In this document: positions 1 to 57,720 of the stretch, one piece after another | How positions within the stretch are numbered: position 1 is the stretch's first letter | How the letters are laid out: each line of letters starts with the position of its first letter | NCBI GenBank assembly: GCA_012518735.1 | Contig: JAAYRO010000060.1 | Coordinates: 23,312-87,311, forward strand | Length of the DNA stretch: 64,000 nt | Source of the DNA: Bacillota bacterium | Lineage (GTDB): Bacteria; Bacillota; Limnochordia; Darwinibacteriales; Darwinibacteriaceae | Direction: 5' to 3' | The notes under the pieces: generated by a model | Databases searched by the model: none | Seen by the model: only the letters and a program-made list of their open reading frames with translations | What the model was told of the DNA's origin: nothing | Made by a program: the position numbers and the translations under genes

Positions 1-448
1 ACCGTCTAAAGGAGGGAAAGGCAGTAAGTTAAAAGCAGCCAAGCCTAGATTGTACTGAACATTAATGAGGAAAAAAATAGATACACTGCGGGCAAGGGAC
101 AGATTGGGCATATAACCTGGTAAGAACCTTCCTAAATTGAAAAACACCCACGCCAGCAAAAAGTTGGCGAATGGACCAGCTAAGGAAACAATTAACGTTC
201 CTTTCCGTCTATCCTTAAAATAGCTGGAATTAATCATTACTGGTCGAGCCCAACCAAATCGAAATATTAAGAGCATCAAAGCCCCTATAGGATCTAAATG
301 CGCTAGTGGGTTTAGGGTTAAGCGTCCTTGATACTTAGGGGTAGGATCTCCCAATTTGTATGCAGCATATCCATGGGCAAATTCATGGAAGGAGATGGCT
401 AATAGTAATGCGGGAATTCCTAAGACGAGCTGTTCAATAGATAACATA
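1..448 (-). CDS. Peptidase M50 / site-2 protease family zinc metalloprotease, partial (3' end of gene lies beyond window start)
   Basis: Minus-strand translation from ATG at 448 (RBS ggagg 7 nt upstream) gives MLSIEQLVLGIPALLLAISFHEFAHGYAA...LNPLAHLDP...NLLPFPPLDG. The HExxH and LDG motifs are typical of the M50 family (SpoIVFB/RseP-like). The frame stays open to position 1. This ORF is below the length cutoff of the supplied track. Confidence 0.7.
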
Positions 449-534
449 AAGGCATGACTCCTCCCTGCAATCAACTCTCCGTTAATAATACCATAAAAAC
501 AACTTCCTTGCCAAATTCAACCTCTAAGTTTCTA

Positions 535-1503
535 TCATTCGCTGAATTTACCACATCTAGAACCCCAACATGCTAAGGGTGAATCATCGCGAGAAATCTG
601 CACAATCTCGCAGCGATTCGAACAGTCCGGACATTCAAAACTACTGCTCGTAAAATGACTATGGGCAATCTCTAATCCCCCAAACCGGGTAGTCTGTCCT
701 GACGATTCCAAATGTTCTTGAGCAAGCTTCGCCACTCCAACCGCACCCATTACATCAAAATAGGGCGGCACTTCAACTGGTAACTCCAGCGCTTCTTCAA
801 GAGCCCGCCGCATACCTGCATTAGCTGCTACACCGCCTTGAAACAAGACAATAGGATGAATGGCCTTACCTTTTGCAACATTACTCAAATAATTGCGGAC
901 CATAGCCAGACATAGACCGGCCAGAATGTCTGGTATGGCATGTCCCAACTGCTGTTTGTGAATCATGTCCGATTCGGCAAACACTGTGCATCGACCGGCA
1001 ATTCGCACTGGATTTTTACTCTGAAGAGCTAAAGGACCAAATTGATCAATTGGAATACTCAAACGGCTTGCCTGCTGATCGAGAAACGAGCCTGTGCCTG
1101 CTGCACAAACAGTATTCATGGCAAAATCCACAACAACACCATCACGCAAAACGATGATCTTTGAATCCTGCCCGCCGATCTCTACGACGGTTCTCACCTG
1201 AGCATTATGGAGCAGAGCAGCAATGGCATGAGCCGTAATCTCATTTTTGACAACATCTGCGCCTATAATGGTTCCAGCAAGTTCCCGCCCACTACCTGTG
1301 GCCCCCACTCCTAAGATATCCCATTGTCCTTGAGACTGTAATCGGGCCAAACCAGCCTGGAGCGTTTCAATAGGCGCCCCATTCGTCCGCAGATAGATCT
1401 TCTTAACTACTGACTCTGCCGGAAGACGTTTGGGATCAACTAAGACTAGATTTGTACTTACTGAACCTACATCAACGCCCAAATACACTTGGTGTTTAGC
1501 CAA
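535..1503 (-). CDS. CoA-substrate-specific enzyme activase (BadF/BadG/BcrA/BcrD / HgdC-type ATPase)
   Basis: 322 aa. N-terminal GVDVGSVSTNLVLVD acetate/sugar-kinase fold phosphate-1 motif, as in HgdC-type activases. C-terminal Cys-rich tail (CPDCSNRC...CWGSRCGKF). Overlaps the next gene by 8 nt. Confidence 0.7.
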   Translation of the reverse strand: MAKHQVYLGVDVGSVSTNLVLVDPKRLPAESVVKKIYLRTNGAPIETLQAGLARLQSQGQWDILGVGATGSGRELAGTIIGADVVKNEITAHAIAALLHNAQVRTVVEIGGQDSKIIVLRDGVVVDFAMNTVCAAGTGSFLDQQASRLSIPIDQFGPLALQSKNPVRIAGRCTVFAESDMIHKQQLGHAIPDILAGLCLAMVRNYLSNVAKGKAIHPIVLFQGGVAANAGMRRALEEALELPVEVPPYFDVMGAVGVAKLAQEHLESSGQTTRFGGLEIAHSHFTSSSFECPDCSNRCEIVQISRDDSPLACWGSRCGKFSE

Positions 1504-2608
1504 GAATCCTGCACCTTTCCCTTCTATGGAGGAGATCTACAAATGCCTCCAACCTCGTTTGAAACCCTGCCTCCCCTGTATGTTCATCCACCACAAGAGA
1601 CAAAACAGGAATATGTTTGTCTTCACTTATCTGGGGCAGTATGGCTTGTGCAACAATTTCTGGCATACATGTCATGGGCAAAATGTGAATTGCGCCTGCA
1701 TAATCTTTCTCCGCCAAGTCTACTGTTCTAGCTACAGTTTCTAAACCATGTCCCCCAACAAAACCCCTCAAATAACCTGCGGCCGACCGCCTTAAGGCCT
1801 GATCAATCCTCAATCCTATACCCTGCTTGAAAATATGGTTTTTTACCCAATCTACAAGGGAAATGGTGCGATAGACCTCTACCCCCAAATATCCCAATCG
1901 TTCCTCGATCTGCAAATTTACGAAAGGCTCAAGTACAGTGTAAATCTCTCCGACTAGACCTACACGGAGTACCTTTTCCTTTTCAGAAGTACTCATAAGT
2001 CCCTTTACAGCATGCACACTTTCTTCTCTAAACTTTCCCACTGCTGACAGCGATTGAGCTTTTTTGATCTGCTGAAAGGCCTGTTTTAGCAGCCTGGACG
2101 TTGAACCGAACTCCCGCTCTCGTGGGCGAACTACCAATGCAAGCAGTTCTAACTCCTCACATGCGTTGAGTTTAGCCCAAGCCAAAAGACAACCTCCTGC
2201 GAATCTCTTAAGATTAGTCTTTTCGAACAGCTTTCCTAATTGGGGCCAAAAATTAGGATTGTTACCCCTAGGCGGCTCTATAGTAATAAACTCGACCTTT
2301 TTACCAAGATCTTCAAGAATTCCCTTATGAACCTCACCGTAATAGCCCAGACGACATGGTCCTGTTCCTCCCGCCATTAAGACACAGTCAGCACCTAGAT
2401 CAATCCCCTCGATTAAGTTTCCCACAATGATCTTGAACGGTAAACACGTAGTATCGGGACTGTATTTCGTTCCTAGATCCAGTGTTCTTTTGGTATCCAT
2501 AGGAGGAACGACAACGTCGTGACCCATTCCTTGTACCAGAGACTCAATGGGTATGTATATGTTTCCCATGTGAGGAAAGGTCACTTTCATGTAATCGTCT
2601 CCTCTCAA
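1496..2608 (-). CDS. Activase-associated protein, DUF2229-like (acyl-CoA dehydratase activase-related), paralog 1
   Basis: 370 aa. The C-terminal motif VVDEHTGEAGFQTRLEAFVDLL is shared with the downstream paralog and recalls the DUF2229 C-terminus. The true start may be an internal Met (about 2590 or 2569). Confidence 0.5.
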   Translation of the reverse strand: MRGDDYMKVTFPHMGNIYIPIESLVQGMGHDVVVPPMDTKRTLDLGTKYSPDTTCLPFKIIVGNLIEGIDLGADCVLMAGGTGPCRLGYYGEVHKGILEDLGKKVEFITIEPPRGNNPNFWPQLGKLFEKTNLKRFAGGCLLAWAKLNACEELELLALVVRPREREFGSTSRLLKQAFQQIKKAQSLSAVGKFREESVHAVKGLMSTSEKEKVLRVGLVGEIYTVLEPFVNLQIEERLGYLGVEVYRTISLVDWVKNHIFKQGIGLRIDQALRRSAAGYLRGFVGGHGLETVARTVDLAEKDYAGAIHILPMTCMPEIVAQAILPQISEDKHIPVLSLVVDEHTGEAGFQTRLEAFVDLLHRRERCRILG

Positions 2609-3500
2609 GTAGATCTAGAAACGCTTCAAGACGTGTAATCATCCCTACCTCCCCTGTATGTTCATCAAGGTTAATCATAAGGTTAGGTAAATTCCCAAGC
2701 CGAGCCTTGCGGTCGATCAGTTCACCTACAAGGGAATCAGCCCCGCATGCGAAAGCAGCTAGTGTCACAATACCGTCTAAATTTTCCCATAAGTGTTCTA
2801 ATGCACCGACTGCGTTTCGTCCTGAAGTCCAAAACATTCTTTTTGGTAGTATACTGCTCGCTTTCATTATGTCCTTTTCTGAAACCTGGGCTGCAGTAAA
2901 CACATTCACGCCCGCTGATTCTAGTCTTTTTTTTATATCAATACTGATAAAAGGGTCGTCCACTAAGTAACGCTGCCCTATAAGGAGTATATTTAGCCGT
3001 TCTAAAGGTACACTATTAGGTTCTATATACAGCGATTCGTCGTAACGTCTTTGAGCTTGGAAAGCCCGTTCTAGAGCAGACTGTACCTCCCTTTTTGAAC
3101 CGAATTCTAGACCAAATCTTAGATAGCTCTGAACCAACGCCTTAGTGCCCTTCTTACCATTAATAACAGGGGACACCAAAGTTACTGATGGGGGAACTTG
3201 TTTATTTACAATATCGGGAAGACCCATGGAGTTGGGACAAAGGTATTCTAACCGGGCAACACTAATGATTTGGGGAACAAAAATCAATTGGATACCACTC
3301 TCAACCAACGCTCGCACATGTCCTAAATATGTCTTAAGAGGCAGACAGGCGCCATCGACAGAATGAGCTATTCCCCAATTGAGAATCTGCTTGTTTGTCA
3401 CAGGTGAAACCACTGTCTCAAAACCTAACTCCCTTAGGAATGTGGTCCAAAGGGGAAAGTACTGGAAATACTGGAGAGCCCTAGGAATCCCAATTCGCAT
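2544..3500 (-). CDS. Activase-associated protein, DUF2229-like, paralog 2
   Basis: 318 aa. C-terminal NLDEHTGEVGMITRLEAFLDLL motif and a TCLPFK/ACLPLK-like motif shared with paralog 1. Tandem with the activase gene. Confidence 0.5.
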   Translation of the reverse strand: MRIGIPRALQYFQYFPLWTTFLRELGFETVVSPVTNKQILNWGIAHSVDGACLPLKTYLGHVRALVESGIQLIFVPQIISVARLEYLCPNSMGLPDIVNKQVPPSVTLVSPVINGKKGTKALVQSYLRFGLEFGSKREVQSALERAFQAQRRYDESLYIEPNSVPLERLNILLIGQRYLVDDPFISIDIKKRLESAGVNVFTAAQVSEKDIMKASSILPKRMFWTSGRNAVGALEHLWENLDGIVTLAAFACGADSLVGELIDRKARLGNLPNLMINLDEHTGEVGMITRLEAFLDLLERRRLHESDLSSHGKHIHTH

Positions 3501-3518
3501 GAATTAGCACAACCTCCT

Positions 3519-4988
3519 CTACTTTTTCTCTCTTGGCATCGCGCGAATGTCTTTTGGTTTTGTCATACGAGGCCGTACTGCAACTTGAGGAATGGGGTAA
3601 CGAAAGATGATACGGAGTAGAGCCGGCCAATCAAGAGGGATAAGGGGCCATAGATACGGTACCCCAAATGATCGCGTTAAGCCAAAGATCAGCAGTGTAA
3701 TCAGTGACGTCACTCCCAATCCCAGCCAACCGAAGAGGGCAGAACCGAAAAACAGGAAAAATCGAAACAGCCTTATTGCAAGGGAAAACTCCAAACTCGG
3801 TGTGGCAAACGTCCCAATGGCAACCACCGCAGTGTATAGTATGGCTTCTCCCGTAAAAAGCCCTATTGATACAGCCAAATCCCCCAACAATGTGGCACCG
3901 ACCAGCCCTAAGGAAGTTGCTAATGCATTAGGTGTGTGAATTAAGGCCATCCGGATTATGTCCAGTCCTATTTCTAATAGGACGAACTGGAGCCATAACG
4001 GAACCCGACCTGCTTCACGCGGTCCTACAAACTCGAGCCATGATGGTAAATTAGTACTCTCAGCAAGGATGTACCAGATTGGGATGAGAACTAAAGATAG
4101 GAAAATCCCAAGGGTACGTACCCACCGAAGATATGTACCGATGGGGGGATTTTGAAAATACTCCTCAGCATGCTGTGTAAAATGCCAAGCTGTTACAGGT
4201 ACGATGAGTGCGAAAGGCGTTGTATCTACGAGAATAACCACATGACCTTCATACAGATGAGCAGCAGCCACATCCGGTCGTTCCGTATAGCGAGTAACCG
4301 GCAGAGGATTAATACTGGTACCGAGAATGTACTCCTCCAAGTTTTTTCCACCCATGGGAATAGCGTCTCGATCAATTCGTTCAATTCGCTTTTTCACTTC
4401 TTGTATCAAACTGGGATCAGCAATATCGGCAATATAACCTACCAGAACATCTGTTCTGGAACGGCGTCCAACCTGAAGAGCTTCAAAACGCAGCATAGGG
4501 TCTCGAATACGCCGCCGAATAAGGTTAACATTAAAAAGTGCAGTTTCCACAAATCCTTCTCGAGAGCCTCGCGTAACTCGTTCCAGATCTGGCTCTTCAA
4601 TCCCTCGAACAGGATATTGACGAACATCCAGTACAAATACGGTACATACTCCGTCAATTAACAGCAGCATGGTTCCAGAAAGCACTTGAACCATGGCATC
4701 CTGCAGATCATCAGCTGTACTGATTTCATAGAAAGGTAAGTAGTCGTGGAGCAGATGCTCCAGTGCATTAACTGTTAAGCCGCCTCTAGGAATACGCATC
4801 AAGCTCTTCATTATCTCAATCACGGCATAATCATTGACAAAACCATCTAGAAAAATCAAGGCCCCCTTTTTATGGGCTGCTTGAATAGTCCGGACAATCA
4901 GATCAAAGGTGGTCTTGTAGCCGAGCTTGTCCTTGAGAATCTGAAGATTTTCATCTAATCTCCTCTTTACTGAATACTGCTCCTCCAT
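3519..4988 (-). CDS. Spore germination protein, GerA family A-subunit (GerAA/SpoVAF-like)
   Basis: 489 aa. Soluble N-terminal domain and C-terminal multi-TM region typical of GerA-family A subunits. No B or C subunit genes are adjacent. Confidence 0.6.
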   Translation of the reverse strand: MEEQYSVKRRLDENLQILKDKLGYKTTFDLIVRTIQAAHKKGALIFLDGFVNDYAVIEIMKSLMRIPRGGLTVNALEHLLHDYLPFYEISTADDLQDAMVQVLSGTMLLLIDGVCTVFVLDVRQYPVRGIEEPDLERVTRGSREGFVETALFNVNLIRRRIRDPMLRFEALQVGRRSRTDVLVGYIADIADPSLIQEVKKRIERIDRDAIPMGGKNLEEYILGTSINPLPVTRYTERPDVAAAHLYEGHVVILVDTTPFALIVPVTAWHFTQHAEEYFQNPPIGTYLRWVRTLGIFLSLVLIPIWYILAESTNLPSWLEFVGPREAGRVPLWLQFVLLEIGLDIIRMALIHTPNALATSLGLVGATLLGDLAVSIGLFTGEAILYTAVVAIGTFATPSLEFSLAIRLFRFFLFFGSALFGWLGLGVTSLITLLIFGLTRSFGVPYLWPLIPLDWPALLRIIFRYPIPQVAVRPRMTKPKDIRAMPREKK

Positions 4989-5065
4989 CCTACCATCTCC
5001 TAATGGGCATAAATAAGCGCCCTCTACACAAAAAAAGAGCGCTCAGGTGAATTTGGTTACGACAA

Positions 5066-5398
5066 TCACCGAATCGTAGTAGGTACAAACATATCAATAA
5101 TCCCCACTGCAAATGCAGCCAGTAAGGCTCCCATGATCGAAACGGACATCCCTGGTACTATAAACTGTGCCACCCAGATCACAATAGCTGAAACCAGGAA
5201 TCCAACAATGCCACGACCATACGGAGATGTGTTCGTTCCAAATACACTTTCTACAACCCAACCAATTGCGGCAATAGCAATTGCAGCAAGCAGCGCGTGA
5301 AAGAAAGTCAACGCCTTAAATCCCGGTATAACATAGCCAACGAGCATTAATACAAGAGCCGAGACAACAAAACGTACTACAGCACCTAACCAATCCAT
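5066..5398 (-). CDS. YvlD-like 4-TM membrane protein (phage holin 4 superfamily, PF04020-like)
   Basis: 110 aa, four predicted TM helices, resembles YvlD/holin-4 family proteins. Confidence 0.5.
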   Translation of the reverse strand: MDWLGAVVRFVVSALVLMLVGYVIPGFKALTFFHALLAAIAIAAIGWVVESVFGTNTSPYGRGIVGFLVSAIVIWVAQFIVPGMSVSIMGALLAAFAVGIIDMFVPTTIR

Positions 5399-5440
5399 TC
5401 AGGTCACCCCACTTCGAGATTTTCATGTTTCTAGTATAGC

Positions 5441-5470
5441 CAAAAATCGGCCCGGTTATCCCGAGCCGAT
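5441..5470 (-). terminator. Rho-independent terminator downstream of dodecin gene
   Basis: Inverted repeat atcggcccgg / ccgagccgat, followed by a T-run on the minus strand. Confidence 0.4.
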
Positions 5471-5484
5471 TTCTTATAAGAAAA

Positions 5485-5691
5485 TCAATTCTCAACTTGA
5501 AAGGCAATCTGCACATCAGCCTTGTATCCTACAATGTCGCCCTGCTCATTCACATTTCCCGTCCAGTTAAGAACTTCAACTCCCGTTATCCCGCGAATAG
5601 TCTTGGCAGCTTCTTTCACAGCCATCTGAACAGCGTCTTCCCAGTTCTTGTCTGAGTGACCAACGAGCTCAATAACCTTAAATACGCCCAT
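5485..5691 (-). CDS. Dodecin family flavin-binding protein
   Basis: MGVFKVIELVGHSDKNWEDAVQ... is a dodecin-like sequence. Start chosen at the ATG with aaggagg RBS 7 nt upstream. The track ORF extends 17 codons further without an RBS. Confidence 0.6.
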   Translation of the reverse strand: MGVFKVIELVGHSDKNWEDAVQMAVKEAAKTIRGITGVEVLNWTGNVNEQGDIVGYKADVQIAFQVEN

Positions 5692-5734
5692 GGCTTCCTC
5701 CTTTTTACCCATAGCATTCCCGGAAAAACTGGTT

Positions 5735-6673
5735 CTAGCCAAGTACTTCTTTGGCGACCCTTAAGAAGTTGTGACCCATCACTTTTTCCACAACATCTTC
5801 TGATAAGCCCCGCTTCTTAAGCTCATCATACAGTACATACGTTTGAGAGCAATTCTCTAAACCTATAGGAGTTTGGCTGATGCCATCAAAATCTGACCCA
5901 AGTCCTACACATTGGACACCGCCTACGTCAATTAAGTACATTATCTGATTAATCACATCATCCACAGCTGCCTGTCGGTCCTTACTGAGAAAAGCAGAGC
6001 AGAAATTTACGCCTATCACTCCGCCCATTTCAGCCATGGCCTTAATCTGATCGTCCGTTAGATTTCGCCGATGATTACATAACTCCCGTGCATTGGAGTG
6101 GGAGGCAATAACAGGCTTAGAGGTTATACGTAAAACATCCCAAAAACTTGGTTCATTAAGATGAGACACATCCACTAACATTCCTAAGTGATTCATCTCA
6201 TTTATTACCTCGCAGCCAAAAGAACTCAACCCTCCACAGTCATCCCCTTCCATCTGACCGCTAGCAATAGCATTTCGATAGTTCCAGGTTAAGGTTATTA
6301 CTCGCACCCCTAAACGGTACAGATTCCGTAGATGGCCCAACTTGCCTTCTAAGACTTCCCCACCTTCAACTGCTAATAAACAGGCAATCCTGCCCTCTTG
6401 GTAAAGCTCGTCAATACTCGTACCAGAACCAGCGAAACCTAAGTAATCCGAATAATCTTCTATAGTATTCCAAAACAAATCAATCATCTCTAGACCTCGA
6501 TGTAGAGCCATCCCTTGGTAAAATACAGGATCAACAAATACTGCAAAAACTTGGGCAGATATATGACCATTACGAAGCCAATCAAGACAAACATGACCCG
6601 ATTGGTCCTCTAGAGTTTCTCCACTGCTGTGTAATCGAGACAGAGTATCTACATGGGCATCAAAGATGAACAT
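5735..6673 (-). CDS. Membrane dipeptidase (peptidase family M19)
   Basis: DAHVDT, HSNAR and GSDFDG motifs of renal-dipeptidase-family metallopeptidases. Confidence 0.75.
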   Translation of the reverse strand: MFIFDAHVDTLSRLHSSGETLEDQSGHVCLDWLRNGHISAQVFAVFVDPVFYQGMALHRGLEMIDLFWNTIEDYSDYLGFAGSGTSIDELYQEGRIACLLAVEGGEVLEGKLGHLRNLYRLGVRVITLTWNYRNAIASGQMEGDDCGGLSSFGCEVINEMNHLGMLVDVSHLNEPSFWDVLRITSKPVIASHSNARELCNHRRNLTDDQIKAMAEMGGVIGVNFCSAFLSKDRQAAVDDVINQIMYLIDVGGVQCVGLGSDFDGISQTPIGLENCSQTYVLYDELKKRGLSEDVVEKVMGHNFLRVAKEVLG

Positions 6674-6752
6674 ATAACAAGCCTCCTATTCAAAAAGTAC
6701 CTCAACAAATAAAAAAAGCCCACTTGGAAATCCAAGCAGGCTAGGATTCAAT

Positions 6753-7013
6753 TTACCGAGGTTCAACAATAAACTTAATCGCCGTTCGTTCTTCGTTATC
6801 AATCATTACATCAGTAAATGCCGGAATACAGATAAGGTCAACACCGCTGGGCGCCACAAATCCACGAGCGATAGCTATCGCCTTAACCGCTTGGTTAATA
6901 GCACCTGCACCAATTGCCTGGACCTCAGCCTTTCCCCGTTCTCGCAGCACCCCCGCCAGCGCCCCCGCTACTGCATTGGGAACAGATTTTGCTGAAACCT
7001 TTAATACATCCAT
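6753..7013 (-). CDS. spoVS: Stage V sporulation protein S
   Basis: 86-aa product MDVLKVSAKSVPNAVAGALAGVLRERGKAEVQAIGAGAINQAVKAIAIARGF... closely matches SpoVS. Internal Met chosen; the track ORF is N-terminally extended. Confidence 0.8.
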   Translation of the reverse strand: MDVLKVSAKSVPNAVAGALAGVLRERGKAEVQAIGAGAINQAVKAIAIARGFVAPSGVDLICIPAFTDVMIDNEERTAIKFIVEPR

Positions 7014-7102
7014 GTTAGTGACCTCCTTTGGTAAAAACATTACACCTTGTAATACTGCTGTTAATAAATACATATTAGATATCTTCTGAGAAATACCTCT
7101 TT

Positions 7103-7885
7103 TTATGTAACATTTTTGTCACGTTTTACCCTAAAAATGTCAACAGCCTTACCATTTGGGGCCAATTTAACAACTGCACCGTTTAGCTGGGCTGGTCCTT
7201 TCGCCACAGAAAACCTCGCTGGCAGTTGGGTTAAAAACTTATTAATCACCACGGTTCTCTCTACTCCCAAAATCCCATCAGTAGGACCACACATCCCCAA
7301 ATCGGTTAGATACGCTGTACCATTGGGTAGAATCCGCTCATCCGCTGTTGGAACATGGGTATGAGTGCCAACAACCGCACTAACACGCCCATCAAGATAC
7401 CAGCCTAGGGCTATTTTTTCTGATGTAGCCTCTCCGTGAAAATCAACGATAACGTGGGTAACTTCACTTGGAAGATTGGCAAGAATACGATCAGCTTCTC
7501 GGAAAGGACAATCGTAATCGCCTGTAAACACTCGGCCAATCAGGTTAACTACAGCTATGAAACCTTTGGCGGTCCCATGGATATACACGGAAGCACCAGG
7601 AACATCAGGTGGATAGTTTGCAGGGCGAAGAATACGAGGCTCTTCCCCAATATAATCGTACATTTCCTTCTGATCCCAGATGTGGTTACCACTCGTGAGA
7701 ACATCTATTCCCATCTCGAAAAGCTGGGTAGCAATCTTCCGCGTTAATCCAAAGCCTCCCGCCGCGTTTTCTCCATTAGCAATAATTAAGTCAGGCTCAA
7801 ACTCTTCTCGGAGTTCTGGAAGGTACTCAGCCACAATTCGCCGCCCAGGTCTCCCAAAAATATCGCCTAATATCAATACATTCAC
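7103..7885 (-). CDS. ymdB: YmdB-like 2',3'-cyclic-nucleotide phosphodiesterase (TIGR00282 metallophosphoesterase)
   Basis: 260 aa, GDIFGRPGRR...GNH...GTHTHV metallophosphoesterase motifs. GTG start overlaps the stop of the upstream gene (GTGA). Conserved position downstream of rny and upstream of spoVS. Confidence 0.8.
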   Translation of the reverse strand: MNVLILGDIFGRPGRRIVAEYLPELREEFEPDLIIANGENAAGGFGLTRKIATQLFEMGIDVLTSGNHIWDQKEMYDYIGEEPRILRPANYPPDVPGASVYIHGTAKGFIAVVNLIGRVFTGDYDCPFREADRILANLPSEVTHVIVDFHGEATSEKIALGWYLDGRVSAVVGTHTHVPTADERILPNGTAYLTDLGMCGPTDGILGVERTVVINKFLTQLPARFSVAKGPAQLNGAVVKLAPNGKAVDIFRVKRDKNVT

Positions 7886-56402: not shown

Positions 56403-56754
56403 GTTCTGAGTGAACCTGTAAGCCGAGTTCTGTCAAGGATGATCATCTATCTAGGGTCTTAGTTACCTAAAACCTCATGCGGTCAACCCGGAAGTAAAAC
56501 GAGACGAGCAGCCTCTGCTTCCCTATTTGACCTTGCTCCGGATGGGGTTTACCTAGCCGATTAGTCACCTAACCGCTGGTGAGCTCTTACCTCACCTTTT
56601 CAACCTTACCTATCTCTAGGCGGACTATTTCTGTGGCACTAGCCTTAGGGTTACCCCCACTGGGCGTTACCCAGCATCCTGCTCTATGGAGCTCGGACTT
56701 TCCTCAAGAAGACTCGGTAGAGTCTTCCCGCGATCACCTGGTTCACTCAGGAAC
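56403..56754 (-). ncRNA. rnpB: RNase P RNA, bacterial type A
   Basis: Minus-strand sequence contains GAGGAAAGTCCGAGCTCCATAGAGCAGG and GGGTAACGCC (P4 and surroundings). It also has GGTAAGGTTGAAAAGGTGAGGTAAGAGCTCACC, GGTAAACCCCATCCGGAGCAAGGTCAAATAGGGAAG and CCCTAGATAGATGA...GACAGAACTCGGCTTACAGG, which run parallel to the E. coli M1 RNA. The P1 stem pairs GTTCCTGAGTGAACC with GGTTCACTCAGAAC. Ends are approximate. Confidence 0.85.
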
Positions 56755-57631: not shown

Positions 57632-57707
<76 letters not shown>

Positions 57708-57720
57708 CTAGGGGTCCTGA

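Follow-up and report, generated by a model that had tools for sequence, protein, structure and literature searches.

What kind of enzyme is encoded by three consecutive genes that lie directly behind a GerA-family gene in a genome of the phylum Bacillota, and what might it be doing there? The genes occupy positions 535-3500 of a 64,000-nucleotide (nt) stretch of contig JAAYRO010000060.1 (assembly GCA_012518735.1, class Limnochordia), to which we refer, at its full length, as the window. A first-pass annotation, made from the sequence alone, had described them as a non-fused module consisting of an ATPase activase and two paralogous partners. We find this observation confirmed and its interpretation partly supported. 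The main point was absent from that annotation: spoVA operons recurrently continue into this module at their 3' end. Our best reading as a whole, which we hold to be about evenly poised between right and wrong, is a sporulation-linked split PlsA-like enzyme that likely acts on an acyl ester or thioester.

Three open reading frames (ORFs) are indeed present within this interval, all on the minus strand (window ORF list; Table 1). The activase had been listed as the first gene, the order having been read against the direction of transcription; it is in fact transcribed last. The transcription order is RedA (318 amino acids, aa), RedB (longest ORF 370 aa, 2608..1496) and Act (322 aa). The 370-aa ORF proposed for the second gene exists, but the start that is conserved in RedB, MKVTFPHMGN, uses ATG 2590 and follows a GAGGAG Shine-Dalgarno sequence, which gives 364 aa. 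Counted from this ATG, RedB overlaps RedA by 47 nt. The conserved 'ExxxSxHG' tail at the RedA C-terminus (window 2544-2590) comes from reading the DNA for the conserved RedB N-terminus in another frame. RedA begins 18 nt 3' of the stop codon of the preceding gene and has an AGGAGG ribosome-binding site 12 nt before its ATG. On an independent contig with 99% identity, the public gene calls have lengths of 318, 364 and 322 aa. A sigma-70 and terminator scan of positions 1-7200, in which sites were no more numerous than in shuffled sequence, revealed no terminator-like site inside the module and a single promoter-like (sigma-70-like) site at 514-485, before the M50 peptidase gene.

The GerA-family gene upstream of RedA had been considered an orphan. 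It is a clear PF03323 member (Table 1) and has no gerAB/gerAC partners. Its identity to gene X of the Brevibacillus operon sigF-spoVAA-AB-AC-AD-AEb-AEa-X-lysA is 44.8%, compared with ~32% to plasmid-borne GerA-type receptor subunits, and its orthologs close spoVA operons in four loci (L001, L002, L088, L095). Rather than an orphan, it is a SpoVAF ortholog whose partnership with the module is conserved. In the window, spoVAF is the probable first gene of the transcription unit.

We surveyed the 80 best loci of species-representative genomes, out of several hundred genomes. The GerA-family gene is the most frequent upstream neighbor of the module: it directly precedes the module in 30 loci, and in 24 of the 73 loci with enough sequence it is at most 500 nt away on the 5' side, the median spoVAF-RedA gap across loci being 41 nt. 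Upstream sequence of 3.5 kb or more is available for 66 loci; in 39 of these the module is immediately preceded by spoVA genes, the SpoVAF-type gene or both. One locus beyond these (L060) has spoVAEa upstream of the module. The spoVA operons of Heliorestis convoluta and Thermosediminibacter close with spoVAF and then the module, and a metagenomic contig carries the full spoIIAA-spoIIAB-sigF-spoVAA..AF operon and then RedA-RedB-Act. Related genomes that carry the module share with the B. subtilis-type operon (spoVAA-AB-AC-AD-AEb-AEa-AF-lysA) a complete gene set in matching order. However, Bacilli have no RedA-RedB-Act between spoVAF and lysA. Since lysA follows spoVAF in Bacilli and is found 3' of the module in 8 loci, the module in these anaerobes sits between spoVAF and lysA.

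The linkage also appears to be old. In a neighbor-joining (NJ) tree, which carries no support values, spoVA-linked loci hold most of the deep branches, and the non-spoVA contexts (Clostridiaceae, Tissierellia, Caldicoprobacter) form one derived subclade. Because of this distribution, spoVA linkage is probably ancestral. The carriers are endospore-forming Bacillota lineages. A few metagenome-assembled genomes (MAGs) with other labels are probably misbinned; in one of them, labeled Chitinophagales (L062), a spoVAEb gene adjoins the module. The cassette often extends further upstream. A tblastn match to dodecin was found 5' of the module in 31 loci and, in 17 of 29, at most 500 nt 5' of spoVAC (for example, L002:4017-4229 and L039:5388-5573; PF07311 is also listed in the public gene tables of L002 and L003). 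In the window, dodecin is two genes 5' of spoVAF. The PF04020 protein encoded between them is lineage-specific, being present only in the 7 closest loci, and holds the place that spoVAC-AD-AEb take in other genomes. None of spoVAC, spoVAD and spoVAEb was found in the 64-kb window, which looks like a spoVA locus that has lost these genes. The searchable literature contained nothing that ties the RedA-RedB-Act module to sporulation or spoVA and no mention of dodecin together with spoVA. Overall, the module appears to be a conserved 3' extension of the spoVA/spoVAF operon in anaerobic Bacillota, a link that is seemingly undescribed, and we consider its connection with sporulation probable.

The three genes themselves nearly always occur together. 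RedB adjoins RedA in 74 of 75 loci, and Act comes next in 70 of the 75. An overlap of RedA with RedB is seen in 49/60 loci, the lengths -4, -29 and -47 nt coming up repeatedly, and RedB and Act are within 60 nt of each other in 63/71. The recurring overlap lengths indicate translational coupling, in line with the split arrangement of overlapping genes noticed in the first-pass annotation. The 29-nt and 47-nt overlaps, which recur across genomes, are in the same relative frame. Of the 4636 cluster representatives that an exhaustive profile search returned at E<=1e-3, 1354 also pass E<=1e-30. Most of the best 150 are stand-alone proteins of ~300-380 aa, and 13, at 671-770 aa, have the length of RedA-RedB fusions. 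One of the long ones (P0200, 747 aa) is, according to its alignment, a RedA-RedB fusion with a short linker, and a reading of the sequence of P0204 (765 aa) shows the same layout. Such natural 'Rosetta-stone' fusions support a complex of RedA and RedB. They occur in a minority of lineages and are intermediate in architecture, the split module being one extreme and the complete PlsA fusion the other. A profile search of a 5.8-billion-protein set gave, as its best 120 matches, stand-alone RedA orthologs only, with no fused PlsA among them. The existence of fused RedA-RedB proteins, together with the 47-nt overlap in different frames, might suggest that the two Red ORFs are fragments of a single frameshifted gene, a possibility raised already in the first-pass annotation. 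However, RedB has its own conserved start and Shine-Dalgarno sequence, the gene calls on the 99%-identical contig are identical, and the overlap lengths recur. With the split kept in 74/75 loci and in most of the best 150 cluster representatives, we rejected the pseudogene explanation, the probability of which is practically negligible.

What, then, is the enzyme? The assignment of Act as an HgdC-type activase holds. Act matches PF01869 BcrAD_BadFG (1.9e-46; 159 bits against the Pfam cut-off of 31.5) and the TIGR00241 acyl-coenzyme A (CoA) dehydratase activase model (173 bits against the NCBIfam cut-off of 125). It aligns with HgdC (1hux) at 3.7e-36, with the segments MNTVCAAGTG and GRCTVFAESD falling on both 1hux cysteine positions. 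In HgdC these two cysteines hold a dimer-bridging [4Fe-4S] cluster; their counterparts in Act, C133 and C172, are kept in 69/70 orthologs. Act also carries the ASKHA phosphate-1 motif GVDVGS and, judging from its family, is predicted to be a homodimer that couples ATP hydrolysis to electron transfer. The cysteine cluster noted at the C-terminus is real, but its exact form is C291-x2-C294-x3-C298...C317, which is kept in 67/70 orthologs, while C312 is not conserved. The 64-kb window contains no second PF01869 match, so that Act is the lone free-standing activase gene.

RedA and RedB are paralogous, as had been proposed (23% identity, E 1e-19). RedA covers the full PF09989 DUF2229 model (2.2e-47), and RedB matches the same model at 3e-11. 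The C-terminus of RedB also hits PF06050 HGD-D at 4.4e-5, although its 23.6 bits are under the gathering cut-off of 28.4; no PF06050 match was obtained on RedA in Pfam. The three families named in the first-pass annotation thus give significant matches for PF01869 and PF09989 and only a sub-threshold one, on RedB, for PF06050. All the motifs quoted there are found, namely GVDVGS in Act and GACLPLK, TTCLPFK, DEHTGEVGMITRLEAFLDLL and DEHTGEAGFQTRLEAFVDLL in the Red subunits. However, the DEHTGE..TRLEAF element had been taken as a likeness to DUF2229. The RedA-family profile reaches double-cubane cluster protein (DCCP; E 1e-7) and HadC at the C-terminus only, that is, at the FxCGxD...DEHTGE..TRLEAF end. 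Since it aligns the element to the C-termini of these proteins, the latter is a superfamily feature and not a DUF2229 signature.

The cysteines and the predicted structures agree with this affiliation. In family alignments three cysteines are invariant in each Red subunit (C52, C88 and C252 in RedA; C49, C79 and C308 in RedB), in addition to the six near-invariant ones of Act. Ligation of a [4Fe-4S] cluster by three cysteines is the expected pattern in 2-hydroxyacyl-CoA dehydratase subunits. AlphaFold2 models of RedA and RedB have mean confidence (predicted local distance difference test, pLDDT) scores of 94 and 88, respectively. According to Foldseek, the top PDB matches of the RedA model are DCCP, HadC and BzdN/O, and the RedB model matches DCCP, HadB/C and BzdN/O; the significant fold matches are led by the catalytic subunits of DCCP, HadB/C, BzdN/O and MbdO/N. 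The RedA model also matches a few periplasmic-binding-protein folds weakly, under E 0.001. Single-sequence PDB searches with RedA and RedB reached E values of only 1.2-1.5, and a PDB search with the RedB profile was likewise unsuccessful. Family, fold and cysteines together bear out the earlier suggestion of an ATP-dependent reductase or dehydratase. The enzyme almost certainly belongs to the ATP-dependent [4Fe-4S] radical reductase/dehydratase superfamily, which has the fold of benzoyl-CoA reductase, 2-hydroxyacyl-CoA dehydratase and DCCP, and within it to the DUF2229 branch.

The giant fusion proteins of this branch had been described as having unknown substrates, which is no longer the case. 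PlsA/PlsR of C. perfringens (CPE1194/1195) and the single-gene PlsA forms of facultative anaerobes (Listeria, Enterococcus, Bifidobacterium) make plasmalogens: in phospholipids they turn the acyl ester at sn-1 into a vinyl ether. From sn-1 acyl esters, Ger (glycerol ester reductase), a modified PlsA of Thermotoga (Tmari_0479) and Desulfatibacillum, produces alkyl ethers. The published architecture of PlsA/Ger comprises two PF01869 domains followed by PF09989 and PF06050-type segments. Two proteins served as reference fusions, one of 1475 aa from Listeria monocytogenes and one of 1479 aa from Collinsella; both are encoded on pieces of chromosome that PLSDB lists as plasmids. We term them PlsA-type based on length, domain content and the statement in the literature that Listeria carries a pls ortholog.

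Each protein of the module aligns with a separate segment of the Listeria protein (Table 1), Act doing so best with Act2 and the linker behind it. Of the invariant cysteines, all three in RedA and two of three in RedB align with PlsA-type cysteines, and Act residues 286-319, which include the four-cysteine tail, align with Listeria 599-632, the C-x2-C-x3-C...C segment of the linker. The domain mapping holds for 62-78 family members from other genomes (the median aligned range of the RedB family is 1030-1235), and domain-by-domain colinearity with the Listeria and Collinsella fusions is seen across 70-79 members. These segment-wise alignments indicate that the module is a split, single-activase variant of the Act1-Act2-Red1-Red2 enzymes with a permuted gene order (Red1-Red2-Act2). 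Common to both are the BcrAD_BadFG activase, the DUF2229 Red1, the HGD-D-like Red2 and the cysteine-rich segment after Act2, and ATP-driven low-potential one-electron chemistry is expected for both. On the other hand, the module consists of three polypeptides instead of one or two, and it has one activase domain, presumably forming a homodimer, instead of a tandem pair fused to Red1. The contexts differ as well, the module lying beside spoVA/spoVAF and PlsA/Ger being TetR-regulated or stand-alone lipid genes. No second PlsA-like gene was found in the 64-kb window. Given 24-28% identity of the Red parts and an NJ tree that lacks bootstrap support, the module does not seem to be an ortholog of PlsA/Ger.

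Clues to the substrate come from relatives and neighbors, and should be taken as hints, not proof. The only characterized DUF2229 enzymes, PlsA/PlsR and Ger, act on acyl esters of glycerolipids. A sister clade, found in Coriobacteriia, Defluviitaleaceae and metagenomes, has its own place in the NJ tree; its RedA proteins show ~31-33% identity and score ~300 bits against the family profile. In all four sister loci examined, RedA, RedB and Act are encoded in a cassette behind a FabG-like short-chain dehydrogenase/reductase (SDR), and in three of them an acyl carrier protein (ACP) follows. These cassettes share the split three-gene architecture and the gene order with the spoVA-linked module, but they are flanked by SDR and ACP (3/4) rather than spoVA genes and occur in non-spore-formers. 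The Coriobacteriia cassette lies between a DegV fatty-acid-binding gene and rnc and resembles an insertion into a fatty-acid synthesis locus. The sister cassette looks like an uncharacterized ATP-dependent radical enzyme acting on acyl-ACP. Within the family itself, a cardiolipin synthase (PLDc_2) gene is the immediate same-strand 5' neighbor of RedA in four loci that do not adjoin spoVA, and one locus has a patatin gene 3' of the module. The SDR/ACP cassettes and the cardiolipin synthase neighbors therefore point to an acyl or lipid substrate. A lipid-type substrate nevertheless remains a tentative proposal, which we would place somewhat below an even chance.

Combining these data, we propose the following mechanism. 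An Act homodimer would hold a bridging [4Fe-4S] cluster via C133 and C172 and would be reduced by ferredoxin or flavodoxin. Upon ATP hydrolysis, Act would pass a low-potential electron to a RedA/RedB heterodimer, in which each subunit may contain a three-cysteine cluster with one open iron site for the substrate carbonyl. The carbonyl would be converted into a ketyl-type radical, enabling reduction or dehydration. Judging from its conserved position at the 3' end of the spoVA/spoVAF operon, the module would be expressed together with spoVA and is most likely made in the developing forespore. The genomic context also suggests an acyl ester or thioester as the most likely substrate, the best guess being a lipid of the inner forespore membrane. 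In its most specific form, the proposal would be a forespore-specific synthase of ether or otherwise reduced lipids that remodels the inner spore membrane around the SpoVA dipicolinic acid (DPA) channel and the SpoVAF ion channel. So specific a role we regard as unlikely.

A number of observations weigh against a sporulation-linked PlsA-like enzyme. The survey covers the 80 closest of several hundred genomes, and 27 of the 66 loci do not adjoin spoVA genes. The strict B. subtilis sigma-G consensus is present 5' of the cassette (dodecin) in 2/29 loci, against a background of 0.36% per search window, and neither a strict sigma-G nor a strict sigma-F consensus was found upstream of the window genes. 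The split architecture is not specific to sporulation, because the sister clade occurs in non-sporulating Coriobacteriia. Five loci have no adjacent activase gene (L011, L020 and L031, which are Peptococcia MAGs, and L043 and L068); their activase is necessarily either encoded at another site or missing. The NJ tree, again without support values, sets the PlsA-type Red1 domains outside the family. As identity is only 24-32% and the family falls outside the PlsA-type proteins in this tree, transfer of the substrate from PlsA is weak. Finally, that clusters are bound, that Act forms a homodimer and that RedA and RedB form a heterodimer are all predictions from the respective families.

Could the same enzyme class, with the same link to sporulation, serve something other than lipids? 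The substrate might be a soluble metabolite of the forespore, such as one related to the DPA or lysine pathway or a CoA/ACP-bound one, or the enzyme might mature another spore protein or activate it by reduction. The neighborhood, with DPA-channel genes, lysA and a gene for a TrpB-like pyridoxal phosphate enzyme (in Monoglobus also dapF and a diaminopimelate aminotransferase gene), is suggestive in this respect, as are the low identity to PlsA-type proteins and the presence in the cassette of dodecin, a small-ligand-binding protein. Yet no characterized DUF2229 enzyme uses a soluble metabolite, DPA synthesis needs an oxidation and not a low-potential reduction, and the sister clade and the cardiolipin synthase neighbors favor acyl chains. 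We therefore consider a non-lipid role somewhat unlikely. A more mundane possibility is a vegetative, housekeeping synthase of plasmalogens or ether lipids, split but otherwise ordinary, whose position next to spoVA is a historical accident of gene order. This would fit the full domain-level match to PlsA-type proteins as well as the derived subclade and the 27/66 loci outside the spoVA context. It is harder to reconcile with the short gaps behind spoVAF (median 41 nt; 18 nt in the window), which suggest co-transcription, with a linkage kept across many deeply separated Bacillota lineages, and with the separation of the family from PlsA-type Red1 domains as a clade of its own. We find this explanation quite improbable.

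Two further candidates come from elsewhere in the superfamily. In RefSeq the orthologs go under the names '2-hydroxyacyl-CoA dehydratase' and 'acyl-CoA dehydratase activase', as would befit a conventional dehydratase with its activator in amino-acid fermentation. The module indeed shares with HgdAB/HgdC and HadBC/HadI a separate small activase and two paralogous cluster-type subunits (the cluster being predicted here), and with the 2-hydroxyacyl-CoA dehydratases the HadB/C fold and the C-terminal FCxP...D...TRxEAF element. However, the Red subunits are of the DUF2229 type and under the Pfam HGD-D threshold (RedA has no match), and their single-sequence PDB searches stop at E 1.2-1.5. In addition, the four-cysteine tail of Act is an extra beyond the aligned HgdC region, and the catalytic subunits are encoded first and the activase last, unlike in dehydratase loci. 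CoA-transferase and 2-hydroxyacid dehydrogenase were absent among the annotated recurrent neighbor clusters of 83 loci, some clusters being unannotated, and the carriers include syntrophs, sulfate reducers and heliobacteria. A conventional dehydratase is thus very improbable. No better are the prospects of a DCCP-like double-cubane reductase of small molecules acting with its own reductase, even though complexes of DCCP with that reductase (DCCP:DCCP-R) are the top Foldseek matches and the RedA profile aligns with the DCCP C-terminus. The [8Fe-9S] cluster of DCCP, as Jeoung and Dobbek are said to have found in 2018, requires about six cysteines in one subunit, compared with three invariant ones in each Red subunit; moreover, the two subunits of the DCCP dimer are of the same type, while the module encodes two distinct paralogs.

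The spoVA locus has been studied for decades, almost always in aerobic Bacilli. If our preferred reading of a sporulation-linked PlsA-like enzyme is true, an ATP-consuming, oxygen-sensitive radical Fe-S enzyme attached to the spoVA operon in many lineages of anaerobes would be a new component of sporulation or germination, and it could bear on why inner spore membranes are so impermeable. A forespore lipid synthase, in particular, would help by way of lipids to keep the membrane impermeable or the channels working, perhaps in parallel with the lipid-binding role proposed for FigP. This SpoVAF partner of Bacilli is reported to resemble a lipid-binding INSIG-like protein (PMC10903944). The PlsA/Ger class would be extended to a minimal split form made of Red1, Red2 and one activase, and the small separate subunits may suit biochemical and structural work better than 1,400-aa fusions. 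The SDR-ACP sister cassette suggests further acyl substrates for the enzyme class. The chief interest, however, lies in the widespread and previously unremarked attachment to spoVA/spoVAF. This linkage (39/66 loci) emerged from a survey of gene neighborhoods, a kind of check that the first-pass annotation had proposed.

Table 1. Coordinates of the module, its neighbors, the matching segments of the Listeria PlsA-type protein and related features in other loci
Feature	Position	Strand	Remarks
RedA, DUF2229 protein, 318 aa, first catalytic-type subunit	window 2544..3500	-	PF09989 2.2e-47
RedB, paralogous second catalytic-type subunit, 364 aa	window 1496..2590	-	conserved ATG 2590; longest ORF from 2608
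Act, HgdC-type ATPase activase, 322 aa	window 535..1503	-	PF01869 1.9e-46, TIGR00241
SpoVAF-type GerA-family membrane protein	window 3519..4988	-	PF03323 2e-145; identity to Brevibacillus gene
PF04020 membrane protein, 110 aa, between dodecin and spoVAF	window 5066..5398	-	PF04020 4.4e-16
Dodecin (PF07311) gene, recurrent first gene of the cassette in related genomes	window 5485..5742	-	tblastn; gene tables of relatives
Segment matching RedA (Red1)	Listeria PlsA-type residues 670-959		24% identity, E 2e-20
Segment matching RedB (Red2, PlsR-equivalent part)	Listeria PlsA-type residues 1030-1230		28% identity, E 2e-12
Segment matching Act (Act2 and Cys-rich linker to Red1)	Listeria PlsA-type residues 319-632		32% identity, E 7e-44
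Sister cassettes	L086:6213-10428; L087:6234-10216; L092:5261-9212; L093:5260-8935		FabG-like SDR, RedA, RedB, Act, ACP in 3/4
Cardiolipin synthase (PLDc_2)	L015:6432-7934; L023:4550-6052; L035:6391-7935; L061:6199-7731		upstream of RedA

Several further features of the loci were noted. The minus-strand neighborhood at window positions 1-7100 comprises spoVS, an M19 dipeptidase gene, dodecin, the PF04020 gene, spoVAF, RedA, RedB, Act and a small M50 peptidase gene; the module surroundings are a conserved housekeeping and sporulation neighborhood. The syntenic contig L003 continues past the M50 peptidase gene with scpA, scpB and ytfJ. In L020 and L031 an ORF of ~438 aa takes the place of Act after RedB, and in five loci two small PF07670 'Gate' membrane proteins are encoded 3' of Act. 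A ~490-aa protein rich in charged residues and without a Pfam match is encoded next to RedA, on its upstream side, in 7 loci (L013:4178-5656 and six others of the kind, including L033, L050, L056 and L064) from Tissierellia and lineages related to them. L097:3189-7037 encodes a fused 'acyl-CoA dehydratase activase' of 1282 aa, in which an Act domain is combined with one like RedA; it is located on the 109-kb plasmid pHD0315_2-2 of Paraclostridium bifermentans and adjoins genes for a Crp/Fnr regulator and an ATP-binding cassette (ABC) transporter. Elsewhere in the window, also on the minus strand, there are a bacterial RNase P class A RNA (56403-56749, 308 bits) and a tRNA gene (57645-57717).

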